38,746 nt of DNA from IMG/VR virus record IMGVR_UViG_2740892229_000013; one strand, 5' to 3'. The DNA is from a virus (Duplodnaviria > Heunggongvirae > Uroviricota > Caudoviricetes). This document shows, piece by piece, positions 47 through 38,746 of this stretch (the first letter of the stretch is position 1; the number at the start of each line of letters is the position of its first letter). The translations under genes and the position numbers were made by a program. The notes beneath the pieces were generated by a model, which was given only the letters and a program-made list of their open reading frames with translations, made no database searches and was not told where the DNA came from.

Positions 47-513
47 ATGAAAATACGCAATTACCCAAACAGCGAAGAAACACCTGAACCACTGAAACCC
101 CAACGAAGCCTGTTACCGCAAGGATTCTCTCAATCCCAAAAGACACGAAACAGAACAATCACGGGAAACGCCATTACCCAATACACGAATAACTACAAAA
201 GCCCTTCACACTCCAGACAAACAACTCAAACACAATAACGAAAGGATTCGCCCACCTGCCATTACTCCATACACGGAGAAGAACAATCACCAAAACGACG
301 AGAACACCCCATAGAAGAACCACCGCAAAACTAACGAAACCACATACACCGACAGAGAAAACAACACACCCAATTCACCAACAGAAATAGTCGCCGTATA
401 GAACGTTCTGGAAGGAGTGAGCATTAACGCCTATAGAGAGGTTGAGACAGATAAAACACGAAGAAAACACAACATGTATAGCGAAGAAGCCAGGTATGTA
501 TAAGTGGAGAGGG
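47..513 (+). other. A/C-rich, G/T-poor non-coding tract (possible leader/3'UTR or long ncRNA; rut-like composition)
   Basis: Hand counts: 241-300 = 23A/19C/10G/8T; 301-360 = 30A/19C/8G/3T. The only track ORF (47..238) is low-complexity with no RBS. The tract runs into a strong intrinsic terminator. Confidence 0.55.
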
Positions 514-540
514 AAGGAGGGGTGTCGCCTCCTTTTTCGT
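514..540 (+). terminator. Rho-independent terminator
   Basis: Stem AAGGAGG (514-520) / CCTCCTT (528-534), 7-nt loop, T-run 533-537. Confidence 0.8.
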
Positions 541-600: not shown

Positions 601-735
601 CAGGGAAAAGGCTGCATCCCGCTACAGAAACGGCTGGGTTGCCTTCGGGGAACGGCTGGAGGTTTTCAGGGAAACGGTCGAGTTGCCTGTGTGGATTTCG
701 GGAGAAGGCTCGATGCCGGTTCAGGAACGGTGGCG
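601..735 (+). repeat. Iteron-like direct repeat array, core (G)GGAAACGGCTG, six copies
   Basis: Cores end at 614, 636, 658 and 680 (exact 22-bp phasing), then 712 and ~733. Variants: AAAAGGCTG, AAACGGCTG, GAACGGCTG, AAACGGTCG, GAAGGCTCG, GAACGGTGG. Confidence 0.65.
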
Positions 736-958: not shown

Positions 959-1067
959 GTAAAAAGTGTACTCGGTACTGAACCTGAAAACTCACTGCCA
1001 AAACCACATTCACCGGAATAAAATCCTTTTTCGCCTGTGCGTTATTGCGATAATAACACCATCAAGA

Positions 1068-1080
1068 AAACATGTTGTTT
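1068..1080. promoter_or_regulatory. Palindromic leader box AAACATGTTGTTT (variant of AAACAAnTTGTTT)
   Basis: 12/13 identical to the box at 1552-1564. Directly abuts the RBS AAGGA of the 1093 gene. A possible extended -10, TGCGATAAT, lies at 1046-1054. Confidence 0.5.
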
Positions 1081-1092
1081 AAGGATTGCTTT

Positions 1093-1528: not shown

Positions 1529-1537
1529 TGGTATTAT
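1529..1537 (+). promoter_or_regulatory. Candidate extended -10 element TGGTATTAT
   Basis: TGnTATTAT match. It places a transcription start ~1544, 8 nt upstream of box 1552-1564. Confidence 0.4.
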
Positions 1538-1551
1538 TTACGCCATTTAGA

Positions 1552-1564
1552 AAACAAGTTGTTT
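1552..1564. promoter_or_regulatory. Palindromic leader box AAACAAGTTGTTT
   Basis: Perfect 6-1-6 palindrome, 4 nt before the GGAG RBS of the 1573 gene. Identical 13-mer at 12362-12374. Confidence 0.6.
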
Positions 1565-1572
1565 ACGGAGTT

Positions 1573-3047: not shown

Positions 3048-3177
3048 TTATTAAGGCCATCAGCATTGGTGGCCTTAAATGACCATCCTGTTTCCCGCAG
3101 GCTAAAAACACCAACCTCTTACCTCCAGGCAACCGACAAACCCACCTGTTCCCGTCCGGCTACCGCAACTTTCCACT

Positions 3178-3218: not shown

Positions 3219-3231
3219 AAACAATTTGTTA
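3219..3231. promoter_or_regulatory. Palindromic leader box AAACAATTTGTTA
   Basis: Same 6-1-6 architecture, 8 nt upstream of the AAGGA RBS of the 3252 gene. Confidence 0.55.
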
Positions 3232-3737: not shown

Positions 3738-3766
3738 AGAAGAGGGCCAGAAACGGCCCTTTCTCT
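3738..3766 (+). terminator. Hairpin terminator (T-rich 3' arm)
   Basis: AGGGCC (3743-3748) / GGCCCT (3755-3760), extended by GAGAA/TTCTC with one bulge. Confidence 0.5.
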
Positions 3767-3862
3767 ATAGCCACCAGCTGCCGCAGGGAAATTTTCAGAA
3801 ACGGCGAGGAACGTATTCGTGAGCCGACGGGGAACGGCCAGGATTTTTTCGGGAAACGGCTG
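3747..3862 (+). repeat. Second cluster of the GGGAAACGGCTG-type iteron motif (4-5 copies)
   Basis: AAACGGCCC at 3751-3759, AAACGGCGA at 3799-3807, GAACGGCCA at 3832-3840, AAACGGCTG at 3854-3862 (last two 22 bp apart). GGGAAACGGCTGCAT at 3851-3865 mirrors GGGAAAAGGCTGCAT at 603-617. Confidence 0.55.
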
Positions 3863-4152
3863 CATTCGCCTTTGTGTAGAAAAAACATCGGGAAGCTGGT
3901 GGAATCCAACCAGCGGTTGTCGGACAGGTGAGCGGGGAAAATCATGATGACTTTCGTCGCCTGAGACATCCAGATTTCTTTCGTAGCGTAATCACATATG
4001 TGATTAAGTGGTGTGATTATGTGAAAAATCACGCGCACATAATACGCGAGCGGATACGGAACAAAACAAAATGCCGATCCGCGCCGACAATTAAACGCGG
4101 ATCACATAGCAAGAATAAAAGCCAATGATTAACCATACACCATAACGCAATA

Positions 4153-11056: not shown

Positions 11057-11943
11057 CGGACATCATCATTAAACGCTACCGCCCTGAAGAGTTTCCGCGT
11101 CATCTGGACTTTCTGGAGCGAATGACTGTCACAAAGGGAACTGTAGAGGACTGGCACGCTCTTAAGTCGCTTCACTACAAAACAGACGGCAAACCTTTCG
11201 CGCCAACTTACTATCGCTGCGAACTTGATGACCGTCTGGTGGGCGTCGTGGTTATGGCTTACCCGAAACTACTGCTGGCACCTCGCCACCGCATGTTTCC
11301 TAAGTTGAAACCAACCACTAATACCACCGTGGCTAACCAGTACTGGGGTCGGTACGTGAATAACAACTTTGCGGTGATCAGTCGCTCAGTTGTGGATACT
11401 CAGTATCGTGGCGTAGGCGTCTCTTATCGAATGATTAACCTGGTTAGCAGGATGCATGACCGGCCAATCATTGAGATCCAGTCCTCGATGAGCAAATACA
11501 ATCCCTTCGCCATGAAAGCAGGGTTTAAGTTCATCCGCCCTGAGCGACCGAAGAGCTATGAAAGTGCACTGCGTGTATTCCAGCGCCATTTCCGTTCCGA
11601 CCCGGGTGATAACGAGGCGATCGTCAAAGAATTGTTCGCAATGAGCGAGTCTCGTCGTCGCCGTGCACTGCGTGATCTGGTGGCGGACTACCACAAGAAC
11701 AGTTCCCTGGCAAAAGCTGGGCGGAATCGTGGCACGACGATTCAGGACATTGCCGACAGTCTGGTGGACGAGGCCAGCATTGTGAAGCTGCTCAAGGACA
11801 TTCACAACCTGAGCTTTACGTCTCCGTTGTATGGTGTGTACCGAAACCCTGACTTTGGCCGTCGACTGCCTGACACGCTGCCACTGCTGGCATTCGACAA
11901 ACAACCTTTGGATAAACCGTTAGAAATTGCTTTACCGGCATAA
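11053..11943 (+). CDS. GNAT-like acyltransferase-domain protein with helical C-terminal extension (296 aa)
   Basis: Motif-A-like VVDTQYRGVGVS and motif-B-like NPFAMKAGFKF, from pattern recognition only. Confidence 0.6.
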   Translation: MTDIIIKRYRPEEFPRHLDFLERMTVTKGTVEDWHALKSLHYKTDGKPFAPTYYRCELDDRLVGVVVMAYPKLLLAPRHRMFPKLKPTTNTTVANQYWGRYVNNNFAVISRSVVDTQYRGVGVSYRMINLVSRMHDRPIIEIQSSMSKYNPFAMKAGFKFIRPERPKSYESALRVFQRHFRSDPGDNEAIVKELFAMSESRRRRALRDLVADYHKNSSLAKAGRNRGTTIQDIADSLVDEASIVKLLKDIHNLSFTSPLYGVYRNPDFGRRLPDTLPLLAFDKQPLDKPLEIALPA

Positions 11944-11952
11944 GGATTTGCC

Positions 11953-12219
11953 ATGACGTTAACCGATAAACAAAAGGACATCATCAAAACGCTCAATCTC
12001 GGTTATGAGCGAGGTCATCTACTTGACCTGGACGAATTGCTTGAAGTTTTGCCGTACAAGACAACCAAGCAAAGTATCCAGTTCTCAATTCGCGCTCTGA
12101 TAAAAAAGGGGCTGGTGGAGAAAGGGCATACGCGCCAACGCAGTGACAATCGCTATCACCGCCGAACTCTTGGGTTAACCACTTTAGGTCGAGCCAAAGC
12201 GAAGTTACTGGTGATGTAA
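11953..12219 (+). CDS. Small winged-helix DNA-binding protein (88 aa)
   Basis: wHTH-like segment TTKQSIQFSIRALIKKGLVEKG. TAAGGA RBS. Last gene before the packaging module. Confidence 0.6.
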   Translation: MTLTDKQKDIIKTLNLGYERGHLLDLDELLEVLPYKTTKQSIQFSIRALIKKGLVEKGHTRQRSDNRYHRRTLGLTTLGRAKAKLLVM

Positions 12220-35623: not shown

Positions 35624-35633
35624 NNNNNNNNNN
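35624..35633. other. Scaffold gap (10 N)
   Basis: Run of n characters. The flanking sequences belong to different genes (fibre repeat versus lom 3' end). Confidence 1.
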
Positions 35634-35772: not shown

Positions 35773-38746
35773 ATGGCAGTAAAAATTTCAGGTGTACTGA
35801 AAGACGGCACAGGAAAACCGGTACAGAACTGCACAATCCAGCTGAAAGCAAAACGTAACAGTACCACGGTGGTGGTGAACACGCTGGCATCTGAAAATCC
35901 GGATGAAGCCGGGCGTTACAGTATGGACGTTGAGTACGGTCAGTACAGCGTTATTCTGTTGGTGGAAGGATTCCCGCCGTCACATGCCGGGACCATCACA
36001 GTGTATGAAGATTCCCGACCCGGTACGCTGAATGATTTTCTCGGTGCCATGACGGAGGATGATGCCCGTCCGGAGGCACTGCGCCGTTTTGAACTGATGG
36101 TGGAAGAGGTGGCGCGTAACGCGTCCGCGGTGGCACAGAACACGGCAGCCGCGAAGAAGTCAGCCAGCGATGCCGGCACATCAGCCCGTGAGGCGGCAAC
36201 CCATGCGACTGATGCTGCAGGCTCAGCACGTGCAGCCAGCACATCAGCCGGGCAGGCCGCGACGTCGGCTCAGTCAGCGTCTTCCAGCGCAGGAACGGCA
36301 TCAACAAAGGCTACTGAAGCATCAAAAAGTGCTGCCGCTGCAGAGTCCTCAAAAAGCGCGGCGGCCACCAGTNNNNNNNNNNCGCAGCCAGCACGTCAGC
36401 CGGACAGGCCGCGTCGTCGGCTCAGTCAGCGACTTCCAGCGCAGGAACGGCATCAACAAAGGCCACTGAAGCATCAAAAAGTGCTGCCGCTGCAGAGTCC
36501 TCAAAAAGCGCGGCAGCTACCAGTGCCAGTGCCGCGAAAACGTCAGAAACGAATGCGGCAGCGTCACAACAATCAGCAGCCACTTCTGCATCCACCGCGA
36601 CTACGAAAGCGTCAGAAGCTGCCACCTCAGCCCGGGATGCGGCGGCTTCAAAAGAGGCGGCAAAATCATCAGAAACGAACGCATCCTCGAGCGCCAGTAG
36701 CGCAGCTTCCTCGGCAACAGCGGCAGGAAATTCCGCGAAGGCGGCAAAAACGTCAGAGACGAACGCCAGGTCTTCTGAAACGGCAGCGGGACAGAGCGCC
36801 TCGGCTGCGGCAGGCNNNNNNNNNNGGCAGCGTCACAAAAATCTGCAGCCACTTCTGCATCCACCGCGACCACAAAGGCGTCAGAAGCTGCCATCTCAGC
36901 CCGGGATGCGGCGGCCTCAAAAGAGGCAGCGAAATCATCAGAAACGAACGCATCATCAAGTGCCAGTAGTGCAGCTTCCTCGGCAACGGCGGCAGCAAAT
37001 TCTGCGAAGGCGGCAAAAACGTCCGAGACGAACGCCAAGGCTTCTGAAACGGCAGCGGGACAGAGCGCCTCAGCTGCGGCAGGCTCAAAAACAGCGGCTG
37101 CATTATCTGCCAGTGCCGCGTCAACAAGTGCCGGGCAGGCCTCAGCCAGTGCCACCGCCGCCGGAAAATCGGCAGAAAGTGCTGCATCGTCTGCTTCAAC
37201 AGCCACAACGAATGCTGGCGAAGCCGCTGTACAGGCCAGCGCAGCAGCGAGGTCAGCTTCCGCAGCGAAGACATCCGAGACGAACGCGAAAGCGTCGGAA
37301 ACCAGCGCAGAATCCTCAAAAACGGCAGCGGCATCGTCCGCCAGTTCGGCGGCGTCATCGGCATCATCGGCGTCTGCTTCAAAAGATGAGGCGACCAGAC
37401 AGGCGTCAGCAGCGAAGAGCAGCGCCACGACGGCATCCACGAAAGCAACAGAGGCGGCAGGCAGTGCGACGGCGGCAGCACAGAGCAAAAGTACGGCGGA
37501 ATCCGCGGCAACGCGCGCCGAGACAGCGGCAAAACGGGCAGAGGATATTGCATCCGTCGTGGCGCTTGAGGATGCGAGCACGACGAAAAAGGGGGTAGTA
37601 CAGCTCAGCAGTGCGACCAACAGTACGTCTGAAACGCTGGCGGCAACGCCAAAGGCAGTAAAATCAGCCTATGACAATGCAGAGAAACGTCTGCAGAAAG
37701 ACCAGAACGGCGCTGATATACCCGACAAGGACCGCTTCCTGAGTAACATTAATGTTTACAGCAAAGGTGAAGTGGATCAGAAAAAGGGGATGCGATACGT
37801 TGTGGTAAATGCCCCGGCGGGTGTCCAGGAAGGTAAATATTATCCGTTAGTGATAAAAAGGAATGACAGCCATCGGGCATCCCGCGTTGTCATTTCAACG
37901 CCAAGTCGCTCAGCTAATCACAGAATGAATAATTGTGAGTTTAATGGTTTTGTTTGCGCAGGCGGCTGGACGGACCGGGGTAGCTATGCCTGTGGTATGT
38001 TCTGGGCTTATTCAACATCGGAACGCGCTATTCATTCCATTCTGATGAGTAATAAAGGCGATACCGTAGACAGCGTATTCTATATAGAAGGTGGGGCATT
38101 TCCCGTAGAGGTCTTTTTAGAAGAAGGTCTCTCCGTTACTGCACCTGCTTCTGATTATATTGTTGCTGAAACGACTTATAAATTTGGCGCAACTGATCCT
38201 TATTCTGAATCAGTTGCGGTAAATTTAATTTTAGATTTTAAACAAGGTAATGGATTTTATAGTTCATATCCTGTTTTGAGTAAGTCAGACATTAGCGGGA
38301 ATAAGATTTACGCTAATGATGAAGTTATTGTCCGTAGTCAGAACGCGTTAAGGATGATTGCAGGTGATTACGGTGTCATATGGCGAAATGATGGAGCAAA
38401 TACTTACTTGCTCATGACTGATAAAGGCGACCAGTACGGTGGCTGGAACGGTCTTCGACCATTTGCAGTAAATAACGCAACAGGTGAAGTGACGATCAAT
38501 ACACCACTTAATTCTCCTAAGGGGATTAAGGGAAATTCTGATACAGCTACGAAACTTCAGACAGCAATAAAAATATCTGGTGTTTCGTTTGATGGTTCTA
38601 CTGATATCACTTTAACCGCTGCGCATGTTGCTGCTTTTGCCAGAAGAGCAACGGATACGTATGCCGATGCGGATGGGGGCGTTCCATGGAATGCCGAATC
38701 AGGCGCTTACAATGTCACCCGCTCTGGCGACAGCTATATTCTGGTT
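35773..38746 (+). CDS. stf: Lambda Stf-like side tail fibre, broken by two scaffold gaps and open at the window end
   Basis: N-terminus MAVKISGVLKDGTGKPVQNCTIQLKA... matches the recalled lambda Stf. True frames by hand: frame 1 for 35773-36372, frame 3 for 36384-36815, frame 2 for 36827-38746. The distal part carries the fibre repeat GNSDTATKLQTAIKISGVSFDGSTDITLT. Confidence 0.85.
36373..36382. other. Scaffold gap (10 N)
   Basis: Run of n characters. The frame changes across it. Confidence 1.
36816..36825. other. Scaffold gap (10 N)
   Basis: Run of n characters. The frame changes across it. Confidence 1.

Follow-up and report, generated by a model that had tools for sequence, protein, structure and literature searches.

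What could DNA that carries no gene, and whose plus strand is made up mostly of A and C, be doing in a phage? This question is raised by the left end of IMG/VR virus record IMGVR_UViG_2740892229_000013, a 38,746-nt stretch of tailed-phage (Caudoviricetes) DNA referred to here, at its full length, as the window. An earlier note, made from the letters alone, had described at positions 47-540 a non-coding A/C-rich tract ending in a strong terminator, and had offered for it (a) a long rut-type (Rho utilization) loading or decoy region, (b) an unstructured sponge RNA or (c) a palindrome-free DNA segment. We find that the tract is a conserved, undescribed non-coding module of a widespread family of phage-plasmids of gut bacteria, and that the copy in the window is a remnant truncated by an insertion sequence (IS). 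Judged by intact relatives, window positions 60-400 correspond to the right-hand ~40% of a ~0.8-kb module, the left 60%, promoter-like blocks included, having been removed by the IS. As to function, the reading that we rank first, at a probability of about 35%, is that the module may give rise to a derepression-dependent, untranslated, Rho-loading transcript that acts in cis as an attenuator or insulator. The parts of the locus on which the argument draws are the following.

1-59, no strand assigned: 59-nt end of an IS21-family insertion sequence, with 100% identity to that of the istA/istB element in phage PhiR12_2_star; outside the tract.

60-66, plus strand: ATTACCC, the remnant of a GCCATTACCC repeat cut by the IS insertion, recognized by comparison with Cyrano (locus L001, 6003-6012, GCCATTACCC).

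60-400, plus strand: A/C-skewed non-coding tract, the 3′ ~340 nt of a ~800-860-nt tract, delimited by its A+C content (0.754), minimum free energy (MFE) of folding, lack of start codons and intact relatives.

163-194, plus strand: GGGAAACGCC followed by a repeat copy, GCCATTACCCAATACACGAATAA, with 'GG.AACGCCATTAC' invariant in 8 lineages.

243-410, plus strand: the most conserved island, ~170 nt and near-invariant (85-100% column conservation in 8 lineages).

400-498, plus strand: purine-rich, lineage-variable linker without A/C skew (A+C 0.50), ~40 nt of which are missing in other lineages, as seen from alignment gaps.

499-540, plus strand: probable intrinsic terminator of this lineage, made up of a conserved TATAAG (499-504), a hairpin (AAGGAGG at 514-520 with CCTCCTT at 528-534) and a T5 run (533-537).

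The note had reasoned from a compact phage genome, and this premise was wrong: the element is a ~108-kb phage-plasmid of the SSU5/pHCM2 type. The first 1.1 kb of the window is 97% identical to Escherichia phage Cyrano (pLF82) and 99.9% identical to E. coli plasmid CP027358, with weaker matches to Salmonella phage SSU5, S. Typhi pHCM2 and plasmids of Klebsiella, Citrobacter and Enterobacter. When this 1.1-kb query, the IS end excluded, was compared with PLSDB, several hundred plasmids matched, and at least 198 of them cover at least 80% of the query. The remainder of the window is collinear with the Cyrano small-gene block, terminase, head and tail genes. The module itself separates a variable accessory region from a block of small genes, which form single-gene units with individual promoters and terminators. 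Cyrano and CP027358 are homologous to the window only from position 55-60 on, and positions 1-59 match, at 100% identity, an IS21-family (istA/istB) end that also occurs in many unrelated plasmids and phages. Thus, the contig begins inside an IS, and this IS was inserted into the A/C tract; the junction (...ACGCA/ATTACCC...) falls inside a GCCATTACCC repeat. Both this truncation and the conserved islands described below had been missed by the earlier reading.

The skew is extreme and sharply bounded. Window 60-400 contains 148 A, 109 C, 44 G and 40 T (A+C = 0.754), while the remaining 340-nt windows have a mean A+C of 0.501 (standard deviation (SD) 0.036, maximum 0.618), which places the tract ~7 SD away. 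The hand count for 301-360 (30A/19C/8G/3T) was exact. In Cyrano, 102 kb of which were scanned, the tract is the top 600-nt window with an A+C of 0.738, the runner-up reaching 0.593. The skew ends at ~400, and positions 400-540 are purine-rich with an A+C of 0.50. Of the interval 47-540, then, only 60-400 is skewed; the remainder consists of this purine-rich part and of the IS end at 1-59, with its ATG at 47.

The A/C tract is non-coding. On the plus strand of 60-399 there is not a single ATG, GTG or TTG, against ~18 expected per 340 nt, in agreement with the reported lack of an open reading frame (ORF). Substitutions show no 3-nt codon periodicity, and indels are mostly of 1-2 nt. Long open frames do occur in the tract because T-poor sequence has few stop codons, but in all six frames they shift between lineages, even between close relatives. 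Searches of Pfam and PHROGs with the tract gave no matches, and in 7 of 7 relatives annotated by the Prokaryotic Genome Annotation Pipeline (PGAP) the locus is a 1.4-2-kb stretch with either no coding sequence or one small minus-strand ORF. A 63-codon ORF at 47-238 was rejected as an artefact that starts inside the IS and spans its junction.

Is the skew a kept property or a decaying one? Intact tracts in 9 annotated relatives from 5 genera measure 795-857 nt and have an A+C of 0.67-0.71. In ~60 further IMG/VR loci a 600-nt window with an A+C of 0.68-0.75 occupies the same place, 3.3-4.3 kb upstream of the gene for a conserved 160-aa protein. We aligned 44 distinct copies of the tract, which reduce to 8 lineages that are 62-93% identical. 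The lineages differ at ~29% of positions, yet A+C stays at 0.67-0.71 in each of them; the skew is therefore being maintained and is not decaying. The substitution spectrum is near that predicted from the skewed base composition alone.

The alignment resolves the tract into conserved islands separated by variable A/C-rich linkers. From left to right, these are a palindromic block A, the promoter-type blocks B and C, three ~31-nt tandem repeats, four to five ~22-nt units and the ~170-nt 3′ island. The last of these, at window 243-410, holds the last GCCATTACTCCATACACGGAGAAGAACAATCACC copy (from 258), two ~31-nt direct repeats (~277-307 and ~313-343, ~36 nt apart) and the end block AATAGTCGCCGTATAGAACGTT. 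The ~22-nt units are built on the motif GCCATTAC, which with at most one mismatch has 4-6 copies per core tract, all on the plus strand, against 0.2 expected (P < 0.004), and which extends in 4-5 copies to the consensus ACGCCATTACYCAATACACGGAGAA. Their spacing is irregular (41-144 bp; 135/113/90 or 142/135/41/52 bp) and shows no helical phasing. The recurring words pointed out from the window alone hold across the 8 lineages: GCCATTA is 72 times above expectation and AACGAA/ACGAAA ~4 times. The single copy of an iteron core reported at 163-172 is likewise there, as GGGAAACGCC, joined to GCCATTAC in a fusion that does not vary between lineages. Block A, lost from the window (L001 5500-5560, L009 2255-2315), is a highly conserved imperfect palindrome, GGCGGTCAC-N27-GTTGATCGCC, whose inner stem varies between lineages and remains partly paired; it may terminate the upstream gene or act as an operator.

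This pattern bears on a neutral origin, in which tandemly duplicated promoter-proximal fragments would have been purged of T/G-containing hexamers and have left a promoter-free spacer, so that the tract would be evolutionary debris. Pieces of the tract do resemble promoter-upstream sequence, the tract has been lost in 4 of ~60 relatives, and in the window it is disrupted by the IS. Debris does not sit well with a near-invariant ~170-nt island, nor with a composition kept across five genera, and the GCCATTAC units and half-operators are no more promoter-like than chance. Indeed, when the GCCATTAC units were aligned as decayed promoters, local alignment scores were at the null level, the 31-nt repeats excepted, and an array of half-operators (AAGAAAACA) was rejected since these are not enriched in the tract. 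We regard a neutral origin as improbable.

What, then, is being maintained? The plus-strand RNA of 60-399 has an MFE of -23.9 kcal/mol, compared with -95.7 +/- 12.7 for background 340-mers; all 214 control windows fold more stably (z = +5.6). This RNA cannot fold because it contains almost no G or U. The minus-strand RNA of the tract reaches -72.7 kcal/mol (z = +1.8), so near-unfoldability is limited to the plus strand. Since the strand asymmetry also runs through the variable linkers, selection seems to act on a single-stranded molecule, for which the plus-strand RNA is the simplest candidate. The scarcity of 4-bp palindromes (1 in the tract against ~19 expected) is a trivial consequence of base composition. 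'Palindrome-free' is apt as a description of the DNA; as for a role in entry or replication, no observation puts the tract close to the end of a genome or to a known origin.

For its loading, Rho needs at least ~70-80 nt of RNA that is rich in C and poor in G, does not fold and is not translated. The C/G ratio reaches 2.48 in window 60-400, and in relatives, over 820-860 nt, it is 1.9-2.4; the density of YC (pyrimidine-C) dimers is 128-163 per kb in the tract against 97 per kb elsewhere. The plus-strand RNA has more C than G over at least 70-80 nt, has little structure, and would have no ribosome cover, there being no starts, no periodicity and no protein family. Given these properties and the requirements of Rho, Rho should find an excellent substrate in any transcript that runs rightward through the tract, and for this reason the Rho-loading reading stands first. 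The rut-type loading region suggested earlier agrees with every testable sequence criterion (a C/G of 2-2.5, no structure, no starts); its 'decoy' variant found no specific support. Searches of Rfam with the window, Cyrano and pHCM2 copies gave no hit at the gathering thresholds and only chance-level ones by E-value (E >= 0.68).

Would such a transcript be made? Right of the tract, each small gene forms a unit by itself, with a promoter and a hairpin terminator of its own, and the promoters share an architecture of which the nearest example is the following.

1043-1092, plus strand: promoter of the next gene, with TGCGATAAT at 1046-1054, AAGAAAACA at 1064-1072 and AACATGTTGTT at 1069-1079.

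In Cyrano, the recurrent promoter-proximal element reads (TGn)GATAAT-N9-12-AAGAAAACAA-n-TTGTTT. The palindrome AACAAnTTGTT has 18 copies in the 102 kb of Cyrano against 2.3 expected, and promoters of this type precede ParA, the helicase, the beta subunit of ribonucleotide reductase, terS and each small gene right of the tract. Intact tracts start with two promoter-type units, blocks B and C, that share the 'AAGAAAACAA / AACAAnTTGTT' pattern; block C of pHCM2 reads TATATT-N10-AAACAAGTTGTTTT, a layout also seen in the promoter at window 1530-1565. With promoter-type blocks on the left and a hairpin on the right, the module resembles a neighbouring one-gene unit in which an A/C-rich RNA takes the place of the ORF. 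In the window, AACAAnTTGTT occurs at 1069-1079, 1553-1563, 2456-2466 and 3220-3230. It usually takes the form AAGAAAACAAnTTGTTT, 9-12 nt after a -10 of the TGnGATAAT type and 25-45 nt before the start codon, and is found at genes of several functional classes; we take it as a candidate for either an operator or a 5′-leader element of the phage-plasmid.

On the right, the 'strong' terminator placed at 514-540 does have a hairpin and a T5 run, but it is of moderate strength, positions 500-550 folding at -15.9 kcal/mol (z = -1.9). The proposed left-to-right transcription gains indirect support from the promoter-type blocks of intact relatives and from the fact that only the plus-strand RNA is nearly unfoldable; in the window those blocks are gone with the IS. 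RNA-seq of Cyrano lysogens (PMC9928086, S1 table) has the upstream gene CYRAN_102 at an average of 57 normalized units in overnight LB culture. CYRAN_103, which corresponds to the 5′ third of the tract, is in LB at the floor value, log2(FPKM+5) = 2.32, that is, 0 fragments per kilobase per million (FPKM), and in none of the other four conditions exceeds 4.3 (PMC9928086). With CYRAN_102 expressed and CYRAN_103 at the floor, the 5′ third is silent in the plasmid state, and transcription coming from the left stops at or before the tract.

We therefore propose the following sequence of events. The module would be transcribed rightward only upon derepression of the element, into an RNA nearly without G or U, without start codons or Shine-Dalgarno sites and with a C/G of ~2-2.5. 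Such an RNA would be an unusually long rut-like Rho-loading substrate carrying 4-5 GCCAUUAC(Y)(Y) sites. RNA polymerase free of ribosomes and arriving from the left, whether from the module's own promoters or from accessory genes expressed in the lysogen, would be stopped by Rho, with the hairpin as a back-up. The iteron-like cluster and the genes on the right would thereby be protected from incoming transcription.

Several observations weigh against this proposal. A scan with the sigma-70 consensus found no strong promoter inside the module, and a pure barrier would need no promoters of its own. A pure rut site, for its part, would need neither 800 nt, nor A over U, nor invariant islands or GCCATTAC repeats. 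No 11-13-nt periodicity is seen among the YC dimers, whose density does not exceed what base composition would give. The hairpin of other lineages is weaker, rich in G.U pairs and lacks the T-run, the T-run terminator being specific to the E. coli lineage. The expression table (PMC9928086) is confined to the 5′ third of the tract and to lysogens. The window copy, disrupted by the IS, cannot work as proposed, and four of the ~60 relatives (L062, L080, L085 and L087) are without all or most of the A/C tract. From L062 and L080 the iteron-like region has gone as well, homology to their siblings resuming at the first downstream promoter (L062) or further downstream (L080).

The repeated motif invites a different reading, in which the product acts in trans. 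An abundant ~0.6-0.8-kb lytic RNA could titrate an RNA-binding factor of host or phage (Rho, an RNase or a translational regulator) by presenting 4-5 exposed GCCAUUAC(Y)(Y) sites, or just C-rich single-stranded RNA. Non-coding RNAs that sequester their ligands include CsrB/RsmZ, CrcZ and the prophage anti-sRNAs AgvB and AsxR. In keeping with a decoy, the module forms a discrete unit that runs from promoter-like blocks to a final hairpin, GCCATTAC is multi-copy and on the plus strand only (4-6 copies against 0.2 expected, with the ~22-nt consensus), and an RNA that is single-stranded throughout would leave every site exposed. No known ligand emerges, however: (ARN)n, AANAANAA, GGA and YC are not enriched beyond composition, so that Hfq, Crc and CsrA were set aside as ligands, and no Rfam family matches. 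GcvB targets C/A-rich sequence, and was considered as the sponged partner. Its best pairing site in the tract is not conserved, and the R1 duplex (-24.0) does not surpass those with background (-25.5) or shuffled sequence (-27.8). Copies of an antisense partner, GTAATGG(C), are not regularly found at start sites; of 9, only 2 fall at gene junctions. The 5′ third is unexpressed in lysogens, and Rho would translocate off a free RNA instead of being trapped by it. For the sponge of the earlier note speaks the real repeated motif, GCCAUUAC; against it speak the lack of enrichment of the Hfq (ARN/AANAANAA), CsrA (GGA) and GcvB seed signatures and the FPKM of 0 of the 5′ third in LB. On balance we consider a decoy or sponge doubtful. 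A related version seems to us unlikely: an early long non-coding RNA (lncRNA), selected as a bare A/C chain of ~0.6-0.8 kb with 4-5 GCCAUUAC sites, would act in trans on a host machine that handles single-stranded RNA. It would titrate Rho or another factor and so reprogramme transcription of host or phage, or it would decoy an RNA-sensing defence, and would be an RNA counterpart of Rho inhibitors that are proteins, such as P4 Psu.

The islands could instead be read at the level of double-stranded DNA, as an array of protein sites (GCCATTAC units, 31-nt repeats and blocks A-C) that functions together with the repeats next to it.

603-735, plus strand: six GGRAAA(A/C)GGC iteron-like repeats, ~19-33 bp apart, directly downstream.

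Such an array might be part of a lytic origin, a sink for a regulator or a packaging/recognition region, the skew being a by-product of A/C-rich sites. It would account for conserved islands between variable linkers and would fit the adjacent GGRAAACGGC iteron-like cluster and its counterpart at 3745-3860. Paired iteron-like clusters recall the ori/crr repeats of P4. The left end of T7, with G-poor, A/C-rich repeats and an A+C of 0.66 over 216 nt, offers a comparable case. Moreover, the 5′ part of the tract contains three 31-nt repeats with homology to three that stand just upstream of a promoter, at window 3085-3170 (score 53, where the null maximum is 33). Their homology to repeats at a working-type promoter makes at least this sub-element look like a DNA site. 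What an array of double-stranded sites does not explain is a strand asymmetry that extends through the variable linkers and is held at 0.67-0.71 despite ~29% divergence. The GCCATTAC spacing is irregular and not helically phased, the tract lies ~33 kb from repA, ~43 kb around the circle from ParA and ~13.5 kb from terS, and cumulative GC skew holds no origin signal beyond the tract's own composition. We consider a DNA-level array to be rather unlikely.

Three further candidates were rejected: P1-type ParB boxes (TTTCAC / TCGCCA) are too few; cumulative GC skew as an origin signal rises steadily to a maximum at the left edge of the tract; and a structured RNA in the iteron region 541-790 received a positive RNAalifold covariation term, that is, a penalty. 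The most G/T-rich plus-strand stretch of Cyrano is at 61.6-62.0 kb (L012 ~11660-11960; A+C 0.36 over 300 nt). It adjoins the upstream side of the minus-strand repA, so that the plasmid replicon shows a milder, mirror-image skew.

The neighbouring cluster also bears on a primer or R-loop transcript for a T4-like origin, where an untranslated, unstructured RNA would remain paired with its template and the displaced A/C strand, being unfoldable, would offer a helicase-loading platform beside the iterons. Untranslated, unstructured nascent RNA is prone to form R-loops, the iteron-like cluster begins ~60 nt past the hairpin, and the element encodes UvsW, UvsX/RecA, UvsY, a gp32-like single-stranded DNA-binding protein, RNase H, a helicase and a primase. 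The energetics are unremarkable: by nearest-neighbour calculation, hybrid minus duplex comes to -0.06 kcal per step in the rightward direction (z = -1.1) and is unfavourable leftward. A hairpin terminator also stands between the tract and the iterons. We think such an origin transcript quite improbable, and retain the cis-acting, Rho-loading transcript as the preferred account.

Further features of the surroundings were noted along the way. The second GGRAAA(A/C)GGC cluster (3745-3860) is ~3.2 kb away from the first, and the two flank the small-gene block. Immediately next to the -35 of the promoter that serves the 160-aa gene stand three ~31-nt repeats in tandem (window 3085-3170, ACC.ACCT.TT.C..CAGGCTACCGA); their homologues in the intact tract are at L002 5878-5946. 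A conserved inverted repeat at 913-959, GATTATTCTG/CAGAATAATG, carries in its loop the Chi complement CCACCAGC (924-931), which does not vary in the six aligned relatives (from Escherichia, Citrobacter and Klebsiella) where the region is still present; two further Chi sites (3771-3778 and 3895-3902) lie beside the second iteron cluster. A scan of genome contigs with a neighbouring 131-aa protein returned no relatives. In the tail-fibre region, three runs of ten N (35624-35633, 36373-36382 and 36816-36825) represent scaffold gaps or masking, and the blocks beside them match overlapping parts of one Cyrano tail-fibre interval.

Phage-plasmids of the SSU5/pHCM2 type are common in clinical E. coli, Klebsiella and Salmonella and carry resistance genes, and their regulation is almost unstudied. 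No other 0.8 kb of the element is as extreme in composition as the tract, which is conserved in five genera and bears no plus-strand PGAP gene; full-text literature searches found no description of it. Should it be a Rho insulator or an early lncRNA, it would mark the boundary between plasmid-mode and lytic-mode transcription and provide a handle on the switch; deletion of the tract or bicyclomycin should then alter read-through. It would also be an unusually clean natural case of selection for an RNA that must not fold. As far as sequence can tell, the Rho and unstructured-RNA ideas of the earlier note are compatible with these data, and its question of whether relatives keep the skew is answered by an A+C of 0.67-0.71 in five genera.

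How does the module compare with known systems? Iteron and centromere arrays (P1 incA/parS, F sopC, P4 ori/crr) are alike in having direct repeats in a gene-free, plasmid-like region, and the tract has an iteron-like cluster next door. Unlike them, it is unphased, has a strong strand asymmetry that such arrays do not need, and has no adjoining rep or par gene (the Cyrano map has repA at 60.6 kb, ParA at 29.3 kb and the tract at 94.3-95.2 kb). A type III toxin-antitoxin RNA array was rejected, as the tract repeats are degenerate and dispersed and the next 530 nt are non-coding, with no toxin ORF directly after. The left-end region of T7 (~175-390, with CCTAAAG repeats) shares the G-poor, A/C-rich top strand (A+C 0.66, G 0.10-0.14), a short direct repeat and the lack of an ORF, though not sequence similarity with the tract. 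It is the nearest look-alike at the DNA level, though only ~215 nt long, and sits beside the terminal repeat and concatemer junction, whereas the tract spans ~800 nt, is more skewed and is internal, ~13.5 kb from terS. Like the sponge RNAs (CsrB/RsmZ, CrcZ, AgvB/AsxR), the tract is a non-coding unit with several copies of a short motif, in this case on a mobile element. Those RNAs usually measure 100-400 nt and expose their motifs in hairpin loops; the tract would yield a ~0.8-kb unfolded chain, silent in lysogens over its 5′ third, whose motif GCCAUUAC fits no known ligand, the GcvB, Hfq and CsrA signatures not having been found. There is a likeness also to rut sites (lambda tR1 rutA/rutB and the C>G 'bubbles' of untranslated leaders), with which the tract shares C-rich, G-poor, unstructured and ribosome-free RNA; words such as AAACCACAC we take to resemble lambda rutB. 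The link to Rho, as read from these letters, would nonetheless be to a site of a different build: ten times longer than the ~70-80 nt that Rho needs, A-rich instead of U-rich, and equipped with conserved islands, a specific repeated motif, apparent promoters of its own and a hairpin at its end.

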